Positions 8,977 through 24,788 of a stretch of 64,000 nt of DNA are shown one piece after another. This DNA is from an uncultured Bacillota bacterium (lineage in GTDB: Bacteria > Sysuimicrobiota > Sysuimicrobiia > Sysuimicrobiales > Segetimicrobiaceae). Position 1 is the first letter of the stretch. Each line of letters starts with the position of its first letter. Location of the stretch: the NCBI GenBank assembly GCA_963804645.1, contig CAWDRG010000009.1:1184001-1248000 (forward strand), written 5' to 3'. The translations under genes were made by a program, and so were the position numbers. The notes beneath the pieces were generated by a model that was given only the letters and a program-made list of their open reading frames with translations, searched no databases and was not told the DNA's origin.

Positions 8977-10752
8977 TTACTCGGTCGACGACGCCGGCGG
9001 GGCGGTGAGGGGCGCGCGGCTTCCCCGATACCAATTGGTGATCGGCAGCCGGCGGTCTCTGCCGAACGCCTTTGGGGTGATCTTGATGCCCGGCGGCGCC
9101 TGGCGCCGCTTGTACTCGCTGCGGTCGACCATCGCGATCACGCGCGCCACCACGGTCGGGTCAAACCCTTCCGCGACGATCTCGTCGGCCGAGCGGTCGT
9201 CTTCGACGTACCGCTCGAGAATCGGGTCGAGCGTCTCGTACGGCGGCAGCGTGTCCTGGTCGGTCTGATGCGCGCGCAGTTCGGCGGTCGGGGCGCGCTC
9301 GATGACGCCCGCCGGGATCAGATCCCGCCCGGCCCGGGCGTTGCGCCAGCGGGCGAGATCGTACACGAGCGTCTTCGGGACGTCCTTGATCACCGCGAAC
9401 CCGCCGGCCATGTCGCCGTACAGCGTCGCGTAGCCGACGCTCATCTCGCTCTTATTGCCGGTCGTCAGCACGAGCCAGCCGAACTTGTTCGAGAGCGCCA
9501 TGAGGAGATTCCCGCGGCTCCGCGCCTGCAGGTTCTCCTCGGTGATGTCGGGCGGCCGGCCGGCGAATGCCGCGCGGAGCGCGGCCTCGTATTCCTTCAC
9601 GACCCCGCCGATCGGCAGCTCGAGCACGCGGATCCCAAGCGCCTCGGCGAGGGCCGCCGCGAACCGGCGGCTGTCCTCGGAGGTAAACTCGGACGGCATC
9701 GTGACGCCGTGGACCGCGTCGGCGCCCAGCGCGTCGACCGCGACGCACGCCACGAGCGACGAGTCGACGCCGCCGCTCAGGCCCACGACGACGCCCCGGA
9801 AGCCGTTCTTCCGGACGTAGTCCCGCGTGCCGAGCACCAGGGCGCGGTACACTTCTTCCACCTCGCCCGGGGGCGCGGGCGGCGGGACGGTCGGCAGCGC
9901 GGGGCGTTCCATCCGTCCGGCCGAGTTCGAGAGCGTGTAGACGGGCGCTCGGATCCCCTCGTCGCGCAGCGCGTCCGTGGTCCGGATCGAGTTGTACCGG
10001 CGGATGCCTCGGATCGCTTCGACGTCGAGATCGGCGACGATGAGCGCCTCTTCGAACGCCGGCCCGCGGGCGACGATGTCGCCGGTCGGGCCGACGATCA
10101 GGCTCAGCCCGTCGAAGACGAGCTCGTCCTGGCCGCCGATCAGATTGTTGTAGACGACCGCCACGGCGTAATCGCGCGCCCGCGTCTTCAGCATCTCCTC
10201 GCGGAGGCGCCACTTGCCGCGCGCGTACGGCGATCCGTTGATGTTGACGGCCACGAGCGCGCCGGCGAGCGACTGCGCCAGCAGCGGGCCGCCGGGCGCC
10301 CAGATGTCCTCGCAGATCGTGACCCCGACCGGCACGCCGTGGATCACGAACACGGGGCTGTCGGTGCCCGGCTGGAAGTACCGCTTCTCGTCGAAGACCC
10401 CGTAGTTCGGCAGGCGCATCTTGCGATACACGCCGGCGATGCGTCCCTCGTGCAGCACGGCCGCCGCGTTGTACAGGTGATCGCCGGAGTCGGCGAACCC
10501 GACGACGGCGGCCGTCGAGGTCGCGTGCGGCGCGATCTCGGCGAGGCACCGGAGGTTGTCGCGGATGAAGTCGGTCTTGATCAGCAGATCTTCGGGAGGA
10601 TAGCCGGCGATCGCGAGTTCCGGGAAGGCGACGACATCCACGCCGAGCGATTGGGCTTCCTCGAGGCGCTCGATGATCTTGCGGGTGTTGCCCTCGAAGT
10701 CCCCGACCGTGGCGTTCATCTGGGCCATCGCGACCCGGAATCGAGGCGTCAT
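8977..10752 (-). CDS. nadE: Glutamine-dependent NAD+ synthetase (nitrilase-fold glutaminase plus synthetase)
   Basis: FPEL, LPNYGVFDEKRYF, ICEDIW catalytic triad motifs; GLSGGVDS, ENLQAR, TGNKSE, PTAEL, SEYKRRQAP. Confidence 0.97.
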   Translation of the reverse strand: MTPRFRVAMAQMNATVGDFEGNTRKIIERLEEAQSLGVDVVAFPELAIAGYPPEDLLIKTDFIRDNLRCLAEIAPHATSTAAVVGFADSGDHLYNAAAVLHEGRIAGVYRKMRLPNYGVFDEKRYFQPGTDSPVFVIHGVPVGVTICEDIWAPGGPLLAQSLAGALVAVNINGSPYARGKWRLREEMLKTRARDYAVAVVYNNLIGGQDELVFDGLSLIVGPTGDIVARGPAFEEALIVADLDVEAIRGIRRYNSIRTTDALRDEGIRAPVYTLSNSAGRMERPALPTVPPPAPPGEVEEVYRALVLGTRDYVRKNGFRGVVVGLSGGVDSSLVACVAVDALGADAVHGVTMPSEFTSEDSRRFAAALAEALGIRVLELPIGGVVKEYEAALRAAFAGRPPDITEENLQARSRGNLLMALSNKFGWLVLTTGNKSEMSVGYATLYGDMAGGFAVIKDVPKTLVYDLARWRNARAGRDLIPAGVIERAPTAELRAHQTDQDTLPPYETLDPILERYVEDDRSADEIVAEGFDPTVVARVIAMVDRSEYKRRQAPPGIKITPKAFGRDRRLPITNWYRGSRAPLTAPPASSTE

Positions 10753-10793
10753 CCTCATTCCTCCTGCGGCGGGTGCGCCACCCGTCGGCCTCC

Positions 10794-12221: not shown

Positions 12222-13664
12222 TTATACGTCGTAGTACAGGAAGAACTCGTAGGGCACGGGCCGGATGTTGACCTCGTGGACTTCCTTCGTGCGCTTGTAA
12301 TCGATCCACGTGTCGAGCAGGTCGCGCGTGAACACGTCCCCCTCGAGCAGGAACTCGTGGTCGTCCTCGAGCGCCGCGAGCGAGACGTCGAGCGACCCCG
12401 GCACGCTCTTGATCTTGGCGGCCTCATCCGGCGGCAGCTCGTAGATGTTCCGGTCGAGGGGACCGAACCCCGCCTTCGTAGGATCAATCTTGCGCTTGAT
12501 CCCGTCGAGGCCGGCCATCAGCATGGCCGCGAACCCGAGGTACGGGTTGCACGTGGCGTCCGGGCACCGGAACTCCAGCCGCTTGCTGCTGGCCGCCGCG
12601 GGGCCCGAGAAGTACATCGGGATGCGGATCGCGGCGCTCCGGTTGCGCTTGCTGAACGCGATGTTCACCGGGGCCTCGTAGTGGGGGACGAGCCGGCGGT
12701 ACGAGTTCGTCGTGCACGCGCACAGGCCCAGCAGCGCGTTGACGTGGGTCAGCAGCCCGCCGACGTAGTACAGCGCCTCCTGGCTCAGTTCCGCATAGCC
12801 GCCCTCGCTGTAGAAGAGGTTCGCGCCGCCCTTCCACAGACTCTGGTGGACGTGCATGCCGGTTCCATTATCGCCGAACAGCGGCTTCGGCATGAACGTC
12901 GCGGTCAGGCCGTGGCGGCGGGCGACGTTCTTCACGATGTACTTGTAGCTCATCAGCGAGTCGGCCATTCTCGCGAGCGTGTTGTACTTGATGTCGATCT
13001 CGCACTGCCCGGCCGAGGCGACTTCGTGGTGCTGCATCTCCACCTCGATGCCCCAGGCTTCCATCTGCAGCGACATCTCGCTGCGGAGGTCGAGCAGCGT
13101 GTCGGCCGGCGCGACGGGGAAGTACCCCTCCTTCGAGCGGATCCGGTTGCCCATCCCGGGCTGGCCGGTGTTCCAGATCGCCTCGGGCGAGTCGATGCTG
13201 TACCCCATCCGCTGGGGGAGCACGTCGTACTGGACATTGCTGAACACGAAGAACTCGGCCTCGGGACCCCAGTAGCTCGTGTCCGCGATGCCCGTCGTCT
13301 TGAGGTACTCCTCGGCCTTCTGGGCAACGTGGCGCGGATCCCGCGTGTACGGCTTGCCCGTCGTCGGATCGTTGACGTTGCAGATGACCGAGAGCGTCGG
13401 CACCTCGGTGAACGGATCGGGCCGCGCGCTCGCCGGGTCCGGCATCAGGATCATGTCGCTCTCTTCGATCGCCTGGAACCCGCGGATGCTGCTGCCGTCG
13501 AAGCCGATCCCGCGCTTGAACGTCTTTTCGTCGATCTGGCTCGCGGGGATCGTCGCGTGCTGCCAGGTGCCCGGCATGTCCACGAACTTGAAGTCCACCA
13601 TCTTGATGCCGTGGTCCTTAATGTAGGCGACGACTTCCGACGCGCCCATGTCCTTGCCCGCCAT
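12222..13664 (-). CDS. glnA: Glutamine synthetase type I (GSI-beta-like)
   Basis: FDGSSI, HHEVA, ATFMPKP, NGTGMHVHQSL, NSYRRLVP, NRSAAIRIP, RLEFRCPD; NIYEL adenylylation-site Tyr. Confidence 0.98.
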   Translation of the reverse strand: MAGKDMGASEVVAYIKDHGIKMVDFKFVDMPGTWQHATIPASQIDEKTFKRGIGFDGSSIRGFQAIEESDMILMPDPASARPDPFTEVPTLSVICNVNDPTTGKPYTRDPRHVAQKAEEYLKTTGIADTSYWGPEAEFFVFSNVQYDVLPQRMGYSIDSPEAIWNTGQPGMGNRIRSKEGYFPVAPADTLLDLRSEMSLQMEAWGIEVEMQHHEVASAGQCEIDIKYNTLARMADSLMSYKYIVKNVARRHGLTATFMPKPLFGDNGTGMHVHQSLWKGGANLFYSEGGYAELSQEALYYVGGLLTHVNALLGLCACTTNSYRRLVPHYEAPVNIAFSKRNRSAAIRIPMYFSGPAAASSKRLEFRCPDATCNPYLGFAAMLMAGLDGIKRKIDPTKAGFGPLDRNIYELPPDEAAKIKSVPGSLDVSLAALEDDHEFLLEGDVFTRDLLDTWIDYKRTKEVHEVNIRPVPYEFFLYYDV

Positions 13665-13706
13665 GGCCTGCACCTCCGTGTCCCCACGGGACAGAGTCGG
13701 TTCTCG

Positions 13707-13746
13707 AAAACAAAAACGCCTCCCGAGCGAATGCTCGAAAGGCGTC
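13707..13746 (-). terminator. Intrinsic terminator inside the glnA 5' leader (attenuator)
   Basis: Minus strand GACGCCTTTCGAGC-ATTC-GCTCGGGAGGCGTT (14 bp including 3 G-U pairs) followed by TTTGTTTT, between the promoter and the glnA start. Confidence 0.8.
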
Positions 13747-13771
13747 AGGGCCTCCGGTACGTCACGGTACC
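13739..13771 (-). promoter_or_regulatory. Dual-hexaloop hairpin element, putative ANTAR antitermination target
   Basis: GGTAC[CGTGAC]GTACC-G-GAGGC[CCTGAC]GCCTT; the second hairpin overlaps the terminator 5' arm. Confidence 0.7.
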
Positions 13772-13778
13772 TGGCCCG

Positions 13779-14244: not shown

Positions 14245-14604
14245 TCAGGTGAGTCGGGCGTACGCGGTCATTCCGGTGACGTCGATGACCACCACGGGAT
14301 CGGCTCCGACGACCCAGGCGTCGTGCCCCGGGGGCAGCACCGACACGTCGCCCGGCACGAACTCCTGTTCCGTTCCGTCGTCCATCCGCACCCGCAGGCG
14401 TCCCGCGACGTGGTACTGGGTGTGCGGCGCTTCGCAGCTCTTCGTCTTCACGATCGGTCGAACCGAATCGGACCACTTCCACCCGGGCTCGAACGTGCCC
14501 CGTCCAAACGTAATGCCGCCGAGCGTGACAAGTTCCAACTTGCCCTTTGGAAACGACCGCGTTTCGTCGGGCGCGTTCAGGGTCTTGTGCTGCATCGGTG
14601 CCAT
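14245..14604 (-). CDS. Cupin-domain protein
   Basis: FEPGWKWS...SCEAPHTQYHVAGRLRVRMDDG...PPGHDAWVVG. Confidence 0.88.
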   Translation of the reverse strand: MAPMQHKTLNAPDETRSFPKGKLELVTLGGITFGRGTFEPGWKWSDSVRPIVKTKSCEAPHTQYHVAGRLRVRMDDGTEQEFVPGDVSVLPPGHDAWVVGADPVVVIDVTGMTAYARLT

Positions 14605-14752: not shown

Positions 14753-17700
14753 TCAGACCAGATCGGACGCGAGCCGGAGGTTCTCTTCGAGGGTGTCGGT
14801 GCGGCCGCGGAGCCTGGCCGAGGCCCACGCCGCGCCGCCGAGCGCCTCCCGGAGCCGGGTGACGACGCGCTCGTGGTCCGGCTCGTCGACTGGCCAGCGG
14901 GGGGTCCCGATGGCCTCGCGCATCCCGTCCGCGGCGCCGAGCAGGCGCGCCGCCGGCTCGACACTGCCGCCGGCCTCTGCGACGCGCGCCAGGCCCTCCA
15001 AACACTCGATGATTCCACGCTGGTCTCCCAGGGCCCGGCGGCGCTGGAGGCTGTCGCGGATCAGCCGGGCCGCGTCCGGGAGGTCGCCCGCAGCGCACGC
15101 CACCATGCCGAGTTGAAACAACGGCGTGGCGAGGTCCCCGTCGGGATTGCTGTGCTCGAGCAGCCGGAGGCTCTCCTCGAGCAGCTGCTTCGCCCGCGCG
15201 TGCTCGCCGCGGTACCGGGCGAGCGTACCCAGCCCGGCGAGCGATTCCGCGATCCCGCTCGTGTCCTCGAGGGCCCGCTGGACGGGGAGGCTCTCGTCGA
15301 ACAGCGCCGCGGCCCTCGCCATCTCGCCCCGGGCGAGGGCGACGAGCCCGAGGCCGCACTTCCGGTACGCGGCGTCCCATTTCTTCCCGAGCTCGTCCGC
15401 CAGCGCGATCCCCGCCTCCAGCAGGCCGGCGGCCCGCTCGTGCTGGCCCCGCATCAGCGCGATCCGCCCCAGTCTGCCGAGCGACGCCGCCACCGCCGGT
15501 TTGCGGCCGAGCTGACGTTGCAGTCCCAGCGCTTCTTCCATCAGGACGTCCGCGCGTCCGTATTCCGCGTGGTTCGTCGCGAGGATCCCGAGTTGATAGA
15601 GACACTGGGCGATCCCCGCCGTGTCCCCGACGCGGCGGAAGAGCGCCAAGCTCTCCTCGAGCAGGCGGGCGGCTCCCCCGGGATCCCCCTCGTGCAGGGC
15701 CACCGTCGCGATCTCGGCCAGGGCGACCGCGCTCGTCCACGGGTCGGTCACCGACCGGCCCAGCGCCCGGCTTTCCTCGCAGATCGCGACGCCGCGCGCA
15801 TGCTGGCCGCGGTGCCACGTCGCGTGGCCGAGCCAGGCGAGCGACAGCATCAGCGCCTCCCGATCTTGCTGCCCGCGCGCGATCGGGACCGCCTGCTCCA
15901 AGACCGCGCCGGCGTGATCGAAGTCGTCCTGCGCGAAGGCCAGCCGTCCGGCTCCGATCAGCACCCGCATGCGCACGACGGGGTCGGCCCGTTCCGAGCG
16001 CAGCGCGCGCTCGAGCCAGTCGCGTCCCTCGCTGAGGTAGCCGCGCCCGTGCCAATATCCCGAGAGCGCCGCCGTCATCAGCACGCCCGCGTCGTCCGCC
16101 TGTTGGCCGAGCGACCACTCGAGCGCGGCGCGCAGGTTGTCGTGCTCATTCTCGAGCCGGTCCAGCCACACGGCCTGGTCCGGTCCCCTCAACGCCGGCG
16201 CCGCTTCGTCGGCCAGGCGCCCGAAGAACGCGCCGTGGCGTCGGCGCACCGCCACGGCCTCGCCCGACTCGACGAGCTTGGTCTGGATGTACTGCCGCAC
16301 CGTCTCCAGCAGGCGGTAGCGGCCCGGTTCCATCAGCACCATCGACTTGTCCACGAGCTGGGCCAGCAGGTTGAGCACGTCCACCTCGTCGAGCGCGTCG
16401 CCGGCGCCGACGGCCTGCGCCGCGTCCAGCGTGAATCCGCCGGCGAACACCGAGAGATGCCGCAGCAGCGCGCGCTCCGGTTCCGGCAGGAGGTCGTAGC
16501 TCCAGTCCATGGCGGCGCGGAGGGTTTGGTGGCGGGACATGGCCGTCCGCGTGCCCCCGGTCAGCAGCCGGAACCGGTCGTTGAGGCGGGCGGCGATGAC
16601 TTCCACCGGCAGCGCCTTCAGCCGTGCCGCCGCGAGTTCGAGCGCCAGCGGGATCCCGTCGAGGTGCGTGCAGATCGCGGCGACCATCGACGCGTTCTCG
16701 GCCGTCAGCGTGAAGCCCGGCTGGCTCAGCGCCGCCCGCTCAAGGAACAGGCGTACCCCGTCGTACTGCAGCAGGTGCTCCGCGCGCCCGGACTGACGCG
16801 CGTCGGGAACCGACAGCGATGAGACCCGATACACGGCTTCGCCCGCGACGCCGAGCACCTCTCGGCTCGTCGCCAGAATGCGGAGATCGGGACAGCGGCG
16901 GAGCAGGGCCTCGGCAAACTGCACGCATCCGCTCGCGACATGCTCGCAGTTGTCCAGCAGCAAGAGCGCGCGCTTGGTGAGCAGATAGTCGCTCAGGGCG
17001 GTGACGAGCGACCGCGTCGTCTCCTCTCGAAGATCGAGGACGGAGGCGACGGCCTGGGGGATCAGCGTCGCGTCGGGCAGGACGGAGAGGTCGACCAGCC
17101 AGACTCCGTCCGGGAACTCCGGCTGCGCGCCGGCCGCCACTTCGAGCGCGAGGCGGGTCTTGCCGACGCCGCCGGCGCCGACGAGCGTCAACTGCCGGCT
17201 GGCCGCGAGGCGCTCCCGGACCTCCGCGAGCTCGCGCGTCCGACCGACGAAGCTTGTGAGGGCGAGCGGGAGGTTGGTGCGTCCGCGCGCGGGCTGGTCC
17301 GCGGGCGGTCGCGCCGGCGCGGGCGGCGGAGGAGCGGCGGGGGGCACCGTGCCGGCGACGACGTCCTCGTAGAGGCGCTGGCTCGCGGCGTCGGGCGCGG
17401 CGTCGAACTCGCGGCTGAGCGCCTCGCGCAGGATCTGATACTGGCGGAGCGCATGCAGGCGCTGGCCCGTGGCCGCGTACAGACGCATCAGGCCGCGGTG
17501 CGCCTCCTCCCGGCCCGCGTCGGCCACGAGGAGTAGCTGGAAGGTCTCGATCGCCTGCCCGTACGCCCGCTCCGCCTCATACAGCGCCGCCAGATCGTAC
17601 AGCAGCGCGAGATACTCCTGCTGCAGCGCGTCCCGCCGGCCGACGGACCACTCCTCGTACCGGTCCTCGGGAAGCACTTCACCGCCGTACAGGCCGAGGG

Positions 17701-18118
17701 CCGATTGATACGCGTCGATCCGCTTTGTCGTCCTTGCGCGGATGACGGCCTGCTCGAACGCGTCGGCGTCGATCCACACCGCATCGCGCGCCAGCATGAT
17801 GACGTCGTCTTGGAGCGACAGTGTGCGTGGGGCCGGCGCGGGCCCGTCGGCTTCGAGCACACGTCTGGCGATGTGCATCGCCTTGCGGAGGTTATTCGCC
17901 GCCGCGGGGGGCTCGAGGTCGGGCCACAGCCACTCGGTGACCTGCTCCCGGTGGAGGCGGTGGCCCGGGGTGAGCGCCAGCAACTTGACGAGGGTTCTCG
18001 ACTTGCGAAGGGGCCACGCGGCGGAAGGAATCTCCCGGGGTCCGGACGCCACCCGGAACCCGCCGAGAATCCAGATGCTCAGTTGGCTGCCCGGCTCCTC
18101 GAGGTGATCACCCGGCAT
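14753..18118 (-). CDS. SARP/BTAD transcriptional regulator with STAND ATPase and TPR repeats (AfsR-like)
   Basis: N-terminal wHTH-BTAD (LLALTPGHRLHREQ, EEAHRGLMRLY); NLPLALTSFVGR, GAGGVGKT, LDNCEH, LDGIPLALELAA; C-terminal TPRs. Confidence 0.92.
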   Translation of the reverse strand: MPGDHLEEPGSQLSIWILGGFRVASGPREIPSAAWPLRKSRTLVKLLALTPGHRLHREQVTEWLWPDLEPPAAANNLRKAMHIARRVLEADGPAPAPRTLSLQDDVIMLARDAVWIDADAFEQAVIRARTTKRIDAYQSALGLYGGEVLPEDRYEEWSVGRRDALQQEYLALLYDLAALYEAERAYGQAIETFQLLLVADAGREEAHRGLMRLYAATGQRLHALRQYQILREALSREFDAAPDAASQRLYEDVVAGTVPPAAPPPPAPARPPADQPARGRTNLPLALTSFVGRTRELAEVRERLAASRQLTLVGAGGVGKTRLALEVAAGAQPEFPDGVWLVDLSVLPDATLIPQAVASVLDLREETTRSLVTALSDYLLTKRALLLLDNCEHVASGCVQFAEALLRRCPDLRILATSREVLGVAGEAVYRVSSLSVPDARQSGRAEHLLQYDGVRLFLERAALSQPGFTLTAENASMVAAICTHLDGIPLALELAAARLKALPVEVIAARLNDRFRLLTGGTRTAMSRHQTLRAAMDWSYDLLPEPERALLRHLSVFAGGFTLDAAQAVGAGDALDEVDVLNLLAQLVDKSMVLMEPGRYRLLETVRQYIQTKLVESGEAVAVRRRHGAFFGRLADEAAPALRGPDQAVWLDRLENEHDNLRAALEWSLGQQADDAGVLMTAALSGYWHGRGYLSEGRDWLERALRSERADPVVRMRVLIGAGRLAFAQDDFDHAGAVLEQAVPIARGQQDREALMLSLAWLGHATWHRGQHARGVAICEESRALGRSVTDPWTSAVALAEIATVALHEGDPGGAARLLEESLALFRRVGDTAGIAQCLYQLGILATNHAEYGRADVLMEEALGLQRQLGRKPAVAASLGRLGRIALMRGQHERAAGLLEAGIALADELGKKWDAAYRKCGLGLVALARGEMARAAALFDESLPVQRALEDTSGIAESLAGLGTLARYRGEHARAKQLLEESLRLLEHSNPDGDLATPLFQLGMVACAAGDLPDAARLIRDSLQRRRALGDQRGIIECLEGLARVAEAGGSVEPAARLLGAADGMREAIGTPRWPVDEPDHERVVTRLREALGGAAWASARLRGRTDTLEENLRLASDLV

Positions 18119-18291
18119 GCCCGCACGCTCCTTTGCCCGTCGGCTTTCGAGGCATGCGTCGCGGATGCCTCCACGGCCGCGGGCGGGCGCCGGGGGTTCC
18201 CGGGGCGCTTCGGCAGGCGCCGGAGCGCGCGGTCCGAAAGTCATTCAGCGGCGCGGCCGGCGGTCGCGACGATATCGCGGAGGGATGGCCG

Positions 18292-18846
18292 ATGCTCGCG
18301 TACGTGTTTTGGCACTATCCGGATGCGGGGCTGGACGCTGGACGGTACGAGGCGCACCTTGCTGCGTTCCATCGCGCGCTCGCCGCGGCGTCGCCCGATG
18401 GATTTCTCGGATCCGCGGCGTACCGGATCGACGGGGCTCCCTGGCTCCCGGGCAGCGATGGATACGAGGACTGGTACGAACTGGCCGACTGGACGGCGCT
18501 CGGCGTGCTGAACGCGGCCGCGGTGTCCGCGTCCACGCGCGGCGATCACGATGCCGTGGCGGGCCTGGCGGACGGCGGAGCGGGTGGCGTCTATCAATCG
18601 CTGCGTTCGGCCGCTCGCGGCGCGTCAGACGCCGGGCTGTGGCTCACCAAGCCGAGAGGCACGCCGTATTCCGAGTTCATGGGGGCGTTGGAGGCCCTGC
18701 CAGCGGTCTTCGCACTGTGGCAGCGGCAGATGGTGTTGGGGCCGACCGCGGAGTACTTCGTCGCCGGCCCTGAGGCGATGCTCGAGCACGCGATCTTCCC
18801 CGGCGGCTGGAAGCCCCGGTTGATCCGCCGGCATCGTGTGTTCTGA
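18292..18846 (+). CDS. Hypothetical protein
   Basis: ATG after GGAGGG; protein-like composition (LAYVFWH...YEDWYEL...LWQRQMVLGP). Confidence 0.7.
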   Translation: MLAYVFWHYPDAGLDAGRYEAHLAAFHRALAAASPDGFLGSAAYRIDGAPWLPGSDGYEDWYELADWTALGVLNAAAVSASTRGDHDAVAGLADGGAGGVYQSLRSAARGASDAGLWLTKPRGTPYSEFMGALEALPAVFALWQRQMVLGPTAEYFVAGPEAMLEHAIFPGGWKPRLIRRHRVF

Positions 18847-18946: not shown

Positions 18947-20689
18947 CTAGCGCTCGCGGCCGGCGCGCCGGCGCGCGGGGCGCTTGGCGCGCGGCTTCGA
19001 CGCGGCGGTCGACCGCTTGGCCGCCGCTTTCTTGGTCCGAGCCGGTTTCTTGGCTTTGGCCGCGGCGCGCTTCGGCCGCGGAGGGGGCGGCGCGGCCTGC
19101 GGGCCGCCGACCGGCACCAACTCGAACTGCGCGGTCGGCGCCGGCACCCCGGCGCCCTTCACCGTGCCCGGCAGAATCCTAAATACCGGACAGAGGAAGA
19201 CCTCGATCCGGCCGCCGCCCGGCGCAAACAGCGCCGGCAGGTGGAGCGATCGAAGCCCGACGAGCGTCAGGGGGCCGGTCGGCGGCGTGCTGAGCCACCG
19301 GCGCGCGGTCTCGTAGGCCGGCGTCCCGGGGACGGCGACCGCGGTGATGCGGGTCTTCCCGGCCGCGTCGCCGAACGCGAACAGGAACGGACGTCCGTCG
19401 ACGAACTGGCTCCGGCCCCCGTAGAACTGGCCGGTCATGTACACGTAGGCGGTTTCGACCACCGGCGCGTGCCGGAACGTCATCGTGCCGCCCGTGAACG
19501 CGACGCGCGTGGACGGCTGGAAGTCCGGAAACGGCATCGGGTGGACGGCGTCGATCTGCGCCCACTCCGCCTCGCCGGGCGCGTCGATCGAGACCGGCGG
19601 GAACGTCAGGCCGCGCTCGGTCACGATGGTGCGCACGGGGTGGATCTCGAGCAGATGCGGGATCACGGGGTGTCCGACGGACGCGTGGTCGGGCAGCATC
19701 CGCAGCAGGCCCGTGACCGTGACGCGCTGCTGCGTCCCAATCATCTCGTCGAGCAGCCGCGCGTACTGGCTGTGCCCGGTGCCGCCGGCCTCGAGCGCCC
19801 CCGGCCGCACCGCGTTCTGGATGACGCAGGCGATCGTGTCGCGCGTCGCGCCGTCGGCCGGGGCGGGCGACAGCCCGAACGCCACGCCCAACCCGTACTC
19901 GCCTTCGCCGGTGCGCGCCGTCACGTACCCTTCCGCGGTCACGTCGATGCCCGGCGAGAACCGGAGGTACGCGAGCGGCTCGGCGCCCGAGACGACGAAG
20001 TCCTGCTGGTCGCCCGAGCTCGGGAGGATGCTCACCGCGCTCAGCACCCGCAGGAGGTCCGCGGGCGTCCGCACCTCGATCCGGCCCGCCGGGCGCGCCG
20101 GCGTGTGCTGGCGCATCTCGTCCGACACCAGGATCGCGCGGGCGATCTCCCGCATGGGGGTGCGCGTGTTGCGGCTCTGCCGCTGGATGCGGAGGAACGC
20201 TTCCTGCTCGTCGATCCCCTCGCGCTGCATCAGGATGCCTTTCGCGCGGTCGACCAGCTTGCGCGTCTCCAGGGTCTCCTTGAGGTTGCCGACCTCCTGC
20301 TGGAGCGCGCGCAGCTCCGCGAAGCGCGCCATCGCCACCTCGATCACGGGGACCAGCTCGGCCTCGCGCACCGGCTTGACGAGGTAGGCCAGGACCCCGG
20401 CCTCTTGGGCCCGCTGGACGAGGTCGCGCTCGCTCCACGCCGTCAGGAGGATGATCGGCCGCGGCTGCCGCGTCATGATCGTTGAGGCGGCCGAGATCCC
20501 GTCGAGCCCCGGCATCTTGATGTCGAGGAAGATCAGCTCCGGGTTGAGCTTGGCGGCGAGCGCCACCGCTTCCTCACCGTCGCTCGCTTCCCCGACCACC
20601 GTGTAGTCGTGCTCCTCCAGCATCGTGCGGAGGCCCATGCGGATGACCGGCTCGTCGTCGGCGATGAGGATGCGCATCGCGTCGGTCAT
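18947..20689 (-). CDS. REC-ANTAR response regulator (PdtaR/EutV-like) with a long C-terminal extension of unknown function
   Basis: IADDEP, LDIKMPG, YLVKP receiver motifs; ANTAR LETRKLVDRAKGILMQREGIDEQEAFLRIQRQSRNTRTPMREIA; ~380 extra aa. Confidence 0.92.
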   Translation of the reverse strand: MTDAMRILIADDEPVIRMGLRTMLEEHDYTVVGEASDGEEAVALAAKLNPELIFLDIKMPGLDGISAASTIMTRQPRPIILLTAWSERDLVQRAQEAGVLAYLVKPVREAELVPVIEVAMARFAELRALQQEVGNLKETLETRKLVDRAKGILMQREGIDEQEAFLRIQRQSRNTRTPMREIARAILVSDEMRQHTPARPAGRIEVRTPADLLRVLSAVSILPSSGDQQDFVVSGAEPLAYLRFSPGIDVTAEGYVTARTGEGEYGLGVAFGLSPAPADGATRDTIACVIQNAVRPGALEAGGTGHSQYARLLDEMIGTQQRVTVTGLLRMLPDHASVGHPVIPHLLEIHPVRTIVTERGLTFPPVSIDAPGEAEWAQIDAVHPMPFPDFQPSTRVAFTGGTMTFRHAPVVETAYVYMTGQFYGGRSQFVDGRPFLFAFGDAAGKTRITAVAVPGTPAYETARRWLSTPPTGPLTLVGLRSLHLPALFAPGGGRIEVFLCPVFRILPGTVKGAGVPAPTAQFELVPVGGPQAAPPPPRPKRAAAKAKKPARTKKAAAKRSTAASKPRAKRPARRRAGRER

Positions 20690-20690
20690 C

Positions 20691-22380
20691 CTACGATCCC
20701 TCCGGGCGCGGCATCGTGATCACGGCGTGCGTGCCCCCCGGGCCGCCGAACGTAATTTGGCCCTTGAGGTCGCTGCCGACGAGCGTGTGCACGATCTGCA
20801 GGCCGAGGCCGGCGGACCGGTCCGGCACGAATCCCTGCGGCAGGCCCACGCCGTCGTCCTGGACCTCGACGCGCAGCGTATCGCGCCCCGCGGCAAGCGT
20901 GATCATCACGGTCCCGCCGCTGCGGCCCTCGAACGCGTGCTCCAGCGCGTTCTGCAGCAGCTCGTTCACGACGAGCGCAAGCGAGGTGGCCTGCTGGCTC
21001 GGCAGGCTCAGGTCGTCGCCGCTCACCTTGATCTCGAGCGTGAGGCCCGGCCGGGCCATCGTCTGCCGCACCGTCTGCGCGACGCGCTCGAGCATCTCGT
21101 GGACGGCGACCTGCCGCAGGCCGTCGGCGGCGAGAATCTCGTGGACGCCCGCGATGCTCAGGATCCGGTTGATCGTCTCGGTGAGGACCTCGCGGCCCGA
21201 GACTTCGCGGCCGTCGCGCAGCTGCAGGCGCAGCAGCATCGCGATCATCTGGAGGTTGTTCTTCACCCGGTGGTGCATCTCGCGCACCATCGCCGACTTA
21301 ACCACCAGGCTCGCATTCTCGATCGCGAGCGCGGTTTGGTTCGCGAGCGTCTGCAGCATGCTGATCTCGGACGGCGTGAACGTGTGCCGCCGCGCGGTGT
21401 AGCAGTTGACGACGCCCAGCGTGTGGTCCCGCACGCGCAGCGGCACGGACAGGAGCGACCGCACGGGCGACGGTTCGGGCAGCTCGTTCGTGCGGAAGCG
21501 CGGATCGTCCGCGAGATCGTGGCTGACGGCCGGCTGCCCGGTCGCCGCCGCCTCCCCGGGAACGCCCTCACCGACGCGCAGCGTCCGCCGGGGCCGCGGC
21601 CCGGGGGCCTCGGGGTGGGAGGCGGCGAGCACGAGCTCCTCGCCCTCGAGCAGCATCAGCGTGCACAGCGGCGCCTGCAGCACGCGCGCGGCCATCTCCA
21701 CGAGGAGGCGGAGGATCTGCTCGAGATAGAGCGGAGACGTCAGCGTCTCGCTCGCCTCGGCGAGCGTGCGCAGCTCGAGGATCTGGCGCCGCATGCTGTC
21801 GTGGAGGCGCGCCTTCTCGAGCGTGCCGCTCGCGAGATCCGCGATGATGCTCAGCAGCTCGATCTCGTCGTCGCCCCAGGCGTGCGCGCCGGTCGTCTGG
21901 ACGTTGATCGCGCCGAGCGTCCGGCCCTCCACGGTGAGCGGGACCGCGAGCAGCGATTGGAACAGTGACTCGTGGGTCTCCGGCAGGAGCTTGAACCGCG
22001 GGTCCTGCACCGCGTTGGTGGACGCGACCGGCTCCCCGTGCTGCGCCGCCCATCCGGTCAGGCCCTCGCCGAACTTGAGGCGTGCCGCGCCGACCGCGTC
22101 GGCGGCGAGCCCCGTCGTCGCTTTGAGGACCAGGTACTCGCGCGAGGCGTCCAGCAGATAGATCGAGCAGCTGTCGACGGGCATCACTTCCGCGGTCGTC
22201 CGGGTGATCAGGGTGAGCGTGGTGTCGAGGTCGAACGTGGCGCCGATCGCGCGGCTGATCTCCCGCAGCGCCGAGATCTCCGCGGTCTTGCGGGCGAGCT
22301 CCCGCGCCGTATCGTCGGTGTGGCTCTGCTCGGGCGTGATCGCCCCTCGGCGCGGCACTACGGCCTCCCGCGGCCTCGGA

Positions 22381-22394
<14 letters not shown>
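20691..22394 (-). CDS. Soluble GAF-GAF sensor histidine kinase, HisKA_2 class (PdtaS/EutW-like)
   Basis: Two GAF domains; REMHHRVKNNLQ H-box, NELLQNALEHAF, DDGVG, GLGLQIV; no TM segment; exact start uncertain. Confidence 0.92.
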
Positions 22395-24747
<2,353 letters not shown>

Positions 24748-24788
24748 CACGGAGCCTCCTGGACGACGAGTATGGCGCGGCGTTCTTC

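Follow-up and report, generated by a model that had tools for sequence, protein, structure and literature searches.

What does a long extension behind the ANTAR domain contribute to a two-component response regulator? The question is raised by a gene on the minus strand (18947-20689) of the window, a 64,000-nucleotide stretch of contig CAWDRG010000009.1 from an uncultured bacterium of the family Segetimicrobiaceae. The gene encodes a protein of 580 amino acids (aa) with the layout receiver domain (REC), coiled coil, ANTAR domain, linker, two predicted oligonucleotide/oligosaccharide-binding (OB) folds termed OB1 and OB2, a conserved short segment, and a basic tail. We find that this protein is a variant of a known regulator type that carries a module from an unnamed protein family. 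From the predicted fold and the charge of the extension, we give roughly even odds (a probability of about 0.5) to the reading that the OB pair and the basic tail provide an added, sequence-non-specific grip on nucleic acid. Coordinates below are those of the window, on the minus strand unless stated otherwise.

A regulator fused in frame

The front of the protein is readily assigned. The solved structures nearest to its first 194 residues are PdtaR/Rv1626 and EutV, and Pfam places a receiver domain (Response_reg, PF00072) at residues 7-116 (20342-20671) with 97.6 bits against a cut-off of 30.2, in which D11/D12, the phospho-acceptor D56, T83, and K105 are all intact. The ANTAR domain (PF03861), at residues 135-187 (20129-20287), scored 76.3 bits (cut-off 27.3) and aligns to PdtaR (1S8N) and EutV (6WSH). 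By contrast, the remaining ~390 aa returned zero Pfam matches at E ≤ 1. The open reading frame (ORF) has no internal stop over its 580 aa, and its GC content at third codon positions stays at 0.88-1.0 throughout, which marks the extension as coding. It begins with a variable linker (residues 193-205; 20075-20113), which is followed by OB1 (residues ~206-360; 19610-20074), OB2 (residues ~361-508; 19166-19609), the short segment (residues 509-529; 19103-19165), and the low-complexity tail of 51 aa (18947-19102). The mean majority frequency over 43 fused proteins was 0.78 in OB1, 0.84 in OB2, and 0.81 in the short segment, versus 0.58 in the linker and 0.42 in the tail.

The initial annotation had proposed a genuine fusion and had named a stop codon lost near 20100, joining two genes, as the artifact to be checked. 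Stand-alone homologues of the module do exist, and one database contig of 8.2 kb yields split products (P0057/P0058), as such an artifact would have it. This pair, however, goes off-frame in the middle of a domain, the pattern of indel errors, which probably explain it. Reads of the three sequencing runs compared with the gene do not reach the extension. More decisively, the extension was in frame with REC-ANTAR at 20/20 loci examined, from six genera (drawn from the 22 genomes with an extension match), so that homologues keep the fusion in the same open frame, and 43 full-length fused sequences found at database scale align end to end. A joining artifact is thus extremely improbable.

The extension is confined to one family. 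Apart from the genome of the window itself, a first search found it in 21 of 22 family genomes and in 0/18 genomes of other families, and a profile that included distant stand-alone forms again found it in 21/22 family genomes and in 0/71 others in the phylum. The sole family genome without it (G005, 86% complete) has neither the kinase nor the glnA described below, so its miss is probably an assembly gap. We then compared 18 ANTAR loci of other families, hand-picked from about 100 matches and comprising 12 orthologous kinase-regulator pairs and 6 paralogues. All 18 regulators end within about 200 aa, and the 12 orthologues, 185-201 aa long when counted from the alignment start, stop at about 190 aa. 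With the extension restricted in this way and the sister regulators short, the fusion is a derived trait of one family. Among proteins of 336-2000 aa (the best 7999 candidates), no other fusion partner of the module was found, which is weak evidence. An ANTAR-OB fusion was likewise not listed in searches of full-text papers, a coverage outside which lie subscription journals, figures, and supplements that could bear on it; the available text of a 2025 ANTAR review, which counts 149 Pfam architectures, has no occurrence of "OB-fold" (PMC12591593).

Predicted fold, altered residues, and charge

An AlphaFold2 model of residues 201-530, built with 48 sequences, reached a predicted local distance difference test (pLDDT) score of 82.8 and a predicted template modeling (pTM) score of 0.85, and it displays the OB strand order twice; residues past ~511 are of low confidence. 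The model of a stand-alone relative, P0062, has the same fold (pLDDT 93.3, pTM 0.91), and in both models DSSP assigns a beta1-beta2-beta3-helix-beta4-beta5 barrel, twice. Structural searches matched OB2 to Pyrococcus RPA (Z 10.1; root mean square deviation 2.6 over 95 aligned residues), to the MCM N-domain and PolD DP1 (both Z 9.9), and to Teb1 (Z 9.7), and OB1 to RecG (Z 8.4; deviation 2.6 over 88 aligned) and AsnRS (Z 7.8), and Foldseek returned editosome, Teb1, SSB, and class II synthetase OB domains with a TMq of at most 0.25. RPA, MCM, DP1, Teb1, and AspRS/AsnRS lie within 1 Z of each other. With two confident models and four fold searches of the PDB in agreement, the tandem OB fold suspected in the initial annotation is supported as a prediction. 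The two similar beta-rich segments noted there do correspond, at residues 322-355 and 473-505, to the equivalent beta4-beta5 strands of the two barrels, but they are no sequence repeat: The halves matched each other with a best blastp E of 1.3, and a candidate internal repeat from hhalign of OB1 versus OB2 was rejected because the match covered the shared linker only.

Sequence searches gave the module no name. Nothing rose above cut-off in NCBIfam or Pfam, and the window protein had no RPA/SSB or anticodon-binding OB profile above the Pfam cut-off; of 10 stand-alone proteins scanned, one gave a PF01336 match, which at 18.9 bits (E 0.0015) fell short of the cut-off of 27. For 39 module members, PHROGs gave three single-member matches at E 0.05-0.09 and PADLOC gave none. 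PDB sequence searches with three profiles had best E values of 0.014, 0.086, and 0.14, among which an archaeal MCM OB domain recurs weakly. In the ESM Atlas, the extension met unnamed clusters at 0.89-0.90, with Acidobacteriota the commonest, which we treat as leads only, and P0062 met no clusters. A homodimer prediction of the module (score 0.00, mark 0.42) informs neither way.

An exhaustive phmmer search found 19 representatives of the module, 12 of them outside the fused group, and a profile search added more. The stand-alone relatives (P0059-P0069, P0099-P0117) are single-gene products of ~300 aa, annotated only as "hypothetical protein." They resemble the fused module in being colinear over ~300 aa at 26-41% identity, with the same predicted fold, and they differ from it in being acidic, in lacking the tail, and in carrying a full D-x-D-x-H / C-E / E-H / H-x-x-E-x-H residue set. 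In P0062 numbering, D64, D66, H68, C84, E85, N88, R115, H120, H132, E135, H137, D156, N211, R280, and R301 are invariant in 29/29 stand-alone proteins, a set in which several branches are ~1 change per site long. Five of these residues (D64, D66, H68, E85, and N211) are replaced in 49/49 fused copies: D64 by G (46) or E (3), D66 by G (49), and E85 by V or I (49), and the positions of H68 and N211 never hold H and N. Among the others, H137 (49), E135 (48), H120 and H132 (41 each), and the arginines persist in the fused copies. In OB1 of the window protein, G266, G268, A270, and V289 accordingly stand where the stand-alone family has D, D, H, and E, while R330, D334, H335, H345, E348, and H350 are retained. 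The residues of the set, altered and retained, alternate along beta2, beta3, beta4, and beta5 of the predicted barrel, strands that form the ligand face of OB folds.

We infer from these residue patterns that the stand-alone family has a metal-type site that decayed after fusion. Because the D-x-D-x-H motif and the Glu kept in 29/29 stand-alone proteins are replaced in all 49 fused copies, the fused module looks like a disarmed metal-site protein, and with five invariant residues gone, its original chemistry has probably been lost. The D-x-D turn may resemble that of Staphylococcal-nuclease-like OB nucleases (site D21/D40/R35/E43/R87), whose fold was not among the matches listed in the structural searches of the module.

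In a 39-row tree built from all 29 stand-alone proteins and 10 of the 49 fused copies, the fused rows fall on one side of a fully supported branch adjoining P0059. Because this join lies between long branches and the tree has no true root, it does not point to a donor. P0059 is the stand-alone homologue nearest to the fused module (41% identity) and has the full D-x-D-x-H set and a composition of the GC-rich type. In another relative, P0063, a short repeat-like N-terminus precedes the final two thirds of the stand-alone module. The genomic context of the stand-alone genes comes from three loci only, which are AT-rich (L084 has 36-39% GC) and in which the gene stands alone, with a CBS protein, a dodecin, a hydrolase, and a ferredoxin as neighbors (the last matching an archaeal zinc-ferredoxin model below cut-off). 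Soil archaea would be our guess for the hosts; a cluster member of one neighbor is filed under a Methylomirabilota bin, which either counts against archaeal hosts or reflects mis-binning. A further candidate locus, L085, was dropped since the match falls on the strand opposite a long ORF. For the stand-alone forms we found no plasmid match (P0062), no phage match (P0059), no viral contig, and no match in the contigs of the genomes compared.

The tail, which the initial annotation had called histone-like for its Lys/Ala/Arg content, is indeed a strongly basic, low-complexity C-terminus (9 K and 11 R, net +19 over 51 aa, with the K/A/R stretch starting at residue 539), a likeness of composition only, with no Pfam match. 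Of 2860 ORFs that a codon-position heuristic called, this one has the highest net charge over its last 50 residues (median 0). All 42 tails cut from the 43 fused proteins are basic (46-81 aa, net +14 to +28), although their sequence is unconserved. The tail, absent from the stand-alone forms, came with the fusion, and its charge was kept in 42/42. The module itself shifted in the same direction: Its mean net charge is -1.9 in 49 fused copies versus -10.5 in 29 stand-alone proteins, and that of OB2 is +2.4 versus -4.3. Nine Arg are conserved in at least 47/49 fused copies and not in stand-alone forms, and five Arg of OB2 (406, 426, 447, 463, and 494) are invariant in 49/49.

The likely target and its hairpin loops

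The regulator is preceded by its cognate sensor kinase (20691-22394; 567 aa, GAF-GAF-HisKA_2-HATPase, PdtaS/EutW-like), whose stop lies one base before the regulator ATG. This kinase is upstream of the fused regulator in 18/20 loci, the other 2 being cut by contig ends. Downstream on the same strand lies glnA for glutamine synthetase (12222-13664; 480 aa, labeled from reading the sequence), which occurs within 6.2 kb of the fused gene in 11 of 14 family genomes with matches to both; in the remaining 3, the regulator runs to the contig end. In two genomes (G034, G040), glnA directly follows an unfused kinase-regulator pair. Besides the fused regulator, the genome encodes a single ANTAR protein, which lies in a cytochrome/hydrogenase-subunit neighborhood. 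Given the linkage and this unrelated context of the other ANTAR gene, the fused regulator likely acts on the glnA leader. That second REC-ANTAR protein (G000:C4, L021:6892-8648) is unfused, has 193 aa and a Gln at the position of EutV Met172, and goes with a HisKA_2 kinase; it adjoins genes for cytochrome b, cytochrome c, and a hydrogenase delta-subunit, and similar pairs occur in G005, G024, G025, and G033.

The glnA leader (13705-13771) holds two hairpins, P1 (loop CGUGAC, 13766-13761) and P2 (loop CCUGAC, 13749-13744), and a 14-bp intrinsic terminator with a U-tract (13746-13715) that overlaps P2. Its fold has a z of -5.3, and it was the only convincing twin-hairpin site in scans of its own genome; in Rfam, neither the window (at E ≤ 1) nor loci L082-L084 matched an ANTAR-type family. 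A sigma70-like promoter (TTGACG, 17 nt, TATAAC; 13807-13779) was read by eye and was not flagged by the promoter scan. Across the family, G4 of the loop is present in 12/12 intact P1 and 14/14 P2 loops, and the P2 loop reads C-N-N-G-A-Y in all 14 leaders, while the canonical A at loop position 1 was seen in just 1/12 P1 and 0/14 P2 loops. In P1, GGTAC-N6-GTACC is invariant in 12/14 family leaders at a fixed 17-nt spacing, without compensatory changes, and most sister leaders lack it at that place. The P1 stems (13756-13771) sit just behind the -10 box, so a role as a DNA operator is conceivable.

In the predicted fold, P1 lies inside an alternative 5-bp helix (13748-13777) that also ties up the 5' arm of P2; a similar fold is predicted for G004 and G009 and not for most relatives. 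The same hairpin-terminator element precedes a further ANTAR regulator in six genomes (G008, G014, G035, G033, G051, and G030; L104, L115, L098, L060, L061, and L066), which suggests a cascade or feedback loop; the genome of the window (G000) has no ANTAR gene preceded by it. The element also stands before genes that, from their sequence, read as a GNAT acetyltransferase (G001, G005), an aminotransferase (G016), and an ammonium transporter (G091; loci L106, L109, L113, and L095). We rejected a candidate difference in terminator strength (mean -26.5 kcal/mol, n = 21, in the fused family versus -22.9 kcal/mol, n = 20), as the second set includes probable chance matches and five f4 glnA terminators reach -28 to -32.

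The initial annotation had suggested that the OB folds compensate for the non-canonical loops, and the comparison with sister families does not support this. The C-initial P2 with its terminator is also found in 10/12 f4, 8/22 f2, 5/34 f5, and 1/1 f7 genomes (some of these matches are probably chance), all without the module. At glnA itself, 7 of 16 sister-family loci have the same C-N-N-G-A-C hairpin and terminator, and an eighth has a one-letter variant, again in genomes without the module. Furthermore, the crystal structure of EutV with RNA shows loop position 1 free of specific contacts to the protein, and EutV Met172 is an essential contact residue (both from the available text of PMC8934654). 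Of the 11 EutV RNA-contact residues, the window ANTAR domain has 6 identical, 2 conservatively replaced, and 3 changed (R168>Q169, M172>R173, and R177>P178), and the Met172 position is Arg in 20/20 fused and 12/12 unfused orthologues. Any adaptation to the odd loops more likely sits in the ANTAR domain itself, and the order-wide Met-to-Arg change may go with C-initial loops. A residual case for compensation remains at P1, which is sharper in the fused family. That the OB pair reads the leader specifically, either to compensate for the odd loops or by recognizing GGTAC-N6-GTACC of P1, be it in RNA or in a DNA operator, would fit the invariance and spacing of P1 and the scarcity of A at loop position 1. 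Yet one genome without the module (G028) has the same P1 stems, and two genomes with it (G007, G012) have a degenerate P1, which together with the sister leaders makes specific reading by the module quite unlikely.

Several other genes surround the system. Between the fused regulator and glnA lie a 237-aa ORF without a Pfam match (18133-18846, plus strand; within the flank in only G004 of 19 other loci), a BTAD-NB-ARC-TPR regulator (14753-18244), and a cupin (14245-14604). A membrane H+-pyrophosphatase gene (22381-24750) with a promoter-like site at 24818-24789 overlaps the kinase start, and a gene downstream of glnA (8977-10758) reads, from its sequence, like a glutamine-dependent NAD synthetase.

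What the module may do, and known systems

The front half of the mechanism would follow EutV, NasR, and GnfR: The neighboring kinase would phosphorylate D56, the regulator would dimerize, its ANTAR domain would bind G4 of each hexaloop in the glnA leader, and the terminator would be read through so that glnA is switched on, probably under nitrogen shortage. Antitermination by ANTAR regulators has been shown for EutV (available text of PMC3369931) and, at nitrogen genes, for GnfR (available text of PMC2995071). In the ancestor of the family, a stand-alone tandem-OB protein bearing a D/H/E metal-type site would have been taken up and joined to the end of the ANTAR regulator, whereupon the site would have decayed. 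The barrels and the tail would now cling to nascent RNA, or to DNA close by, and thereby increase avidity or dwell time, with the ANTAR domain still supplying specificity.

The argument for such a grip is one of fold and charge: Both halves match nucleic-acid-binding OB domains, and the module is under constraint, has raised its charge and gained Arg, and is followed by a tail that is kept basic. A number of observations weigh against it. Even after fusion, the net charge of the module ranges from neutral to slightly acidic (-7 to +2), with OB1 on the acidic side (-4.4). The Arg gain may reflect the 69% GC content, a bias that may also contribute to the charge shift, and because the fused copies share 65-95% identity, their invariance is inflated. 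Structural matches within 1-2 Z of the top ones include YgiW, CcmE, a lipoprotein, and toxin B subunits, and the ligands of OB folds extend to sugars, metals, haem, and proteins; no structural match spans both domains in the VIA-align and Foldseek searches of the PDB. Tied and single-domain as they are, the matches name a fold and not a function. Half of the putative site is kept (H350 in 49/49, E348 in 48/49, D334 in 49/49, and H335 and H345 in 41/49 each), which a ligand-sensing role explains as well, and the metal site of the stand-alone family is itself deduced from residue type alone. Finally, sister families pair a similar leader with a regulator of just 190 aa, so that the module is not needed for antitermination as such.

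Other explanations compete with the grip. The remaining His, Glu, and Asp of OB1 might bind a metal or metabolite and gate ANTAR as a second input beside phosphorylation, like the NIT domain in NasR. Such a pseudo-enzyme sensor would account for the retention of R330, D334, H335, H345, E348, and H350 in 41-49 of 49 copies and for the well-packed two-domain unit of the stand-alone model with invariant residues in both halves, and the domains that accompany ANTAR are typically sensory (available texts of PMC3369931 and PMC12591593). We nevertheless consider it rather unlikely: H335 and H345 vary (Q, L, or R in 8/49 each), which is poor for metal ligands, the basic tail is left unexplained, and those texts do not place the sensory partners that they describe C-terminal to ANTAR. 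The module might instead mediate protein interaction or oligomerization, by pre-dimerizing the regulator, docking on the kinase, or contacting RNA polymerase or glutamine synthetase. Segment 509-529, which is conserved only in fused forms, absent from stand-alone ones, and unstructured (low pLDDT) in the monomer model, would fit a strand that completes the fold of a partner, and RPA, Stn1-Ten1, and editosome OB folds among the matches are interaction domains. A strongly basic tail, however, points to a polyanion, and the module is not accompanied by a partner gene: Its one constant neighbor is the kinase, which families lacking the module have as well. This leaves the explanation unlikely. We favor still less a working enzyme, such as a nuclease or hydrolase directed at the leader or terminator by its targeting domain. 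The stand-alone relatives do keep D, D, H, E, H, H, E, and H across their long branches, and part of this set survives in the fusion, but the replacement of four set residues and N211 in 49/49 fused copies, mostly by G, A, or V, and the lack of a known activity even for the stand-alone form render it very unlikely.

We thus return to the non-specific grip as our preferred reading. A bolder picture, which we advance only tentatively and hold to be on the doubtful side, starts from a so far undescribed family of tandem-OB metallo-proteins, whose members may be nucleases and may come from soil archaea. It would have been captured a single time, disarmed, and placed behind ANTAR. The product would be an antiterminator that controls glutamine synthetase and brings along its own RNA clamp or chaperone or, alternatively, a leftover metal sensor, and the stand-alone family would then be a new class of OB-fold enzymes. 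The regulatory logic itself is already known, and descriptions of ANTAR antiterminators portray small regulators to which sensory domains are attached. What the fusion adds is a pointer to a tandem-OB family that has no name and whose residue set is enzyme-like. The pairing of Met-to-Arg with C-initial loops, if true, would widen the rules for predicting ANTAR regulons. Sister families with a similar kinase, regulator, and leader but no module offer a natural comparison, so that the contribution of the module to affinity, kinetics, or signal input is directly measurable.

Among known systems, the individual barrels resemble RPA/SSB-type and anticodon-binding OB domains (Pyrococcus RPA 8C5Y, Teb1 3U58, MCM N-domain 1LTL, AsnRS, and the RecG wedge), with which they share a five-strand barrel and a helix between beta3 and beta4 at Z 8-10 per domain. 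Identity is ~7-20%, and none of these has the two-domain arrangement of the module. Cold-shock proteins, in their role of RNA-chaperone antiterminators, use an OB fold, and HupB, Ku, and topoisomerase I use K/A-rich tails, as non-specific grips on nucleic acid; unlike in the window protein, these are not known to be fused to ANTAR, and no sequence match emerged. In function, the closest parallel to the proposed target is GnfK/GnfR of Geobacter sulfurreducens, where an ANTAR response regulator overrides leader terminators of the nitrogen genes nifH, glnK, and amtB; that system differs in its sigma54 cascade and its role in nitrogen fixation, and its available text does not mention a C-terminal module (PMC2995071). 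In architecture, the likeness is greatest to PdtaR (Rv1626, PDB 1S8N) with PdtaS and to EutV (PDB 6WSH/6WW6) with EutW: The REC-coiled-coil-ANTAR part matches at E 9e-56 and 8e-40 over residues 5-191, a HisKA_2 kinase adjoins the regulator, and the target of EutV likewise consists of twin hexaloops with G4 that overlap an intrinsic terminator. From both, the window regulator departs by ~390 extra residues behind ANTAR, by an Arg at the Met172 plug, by a loop position 1 that is not A, and by glnA as its likely target.

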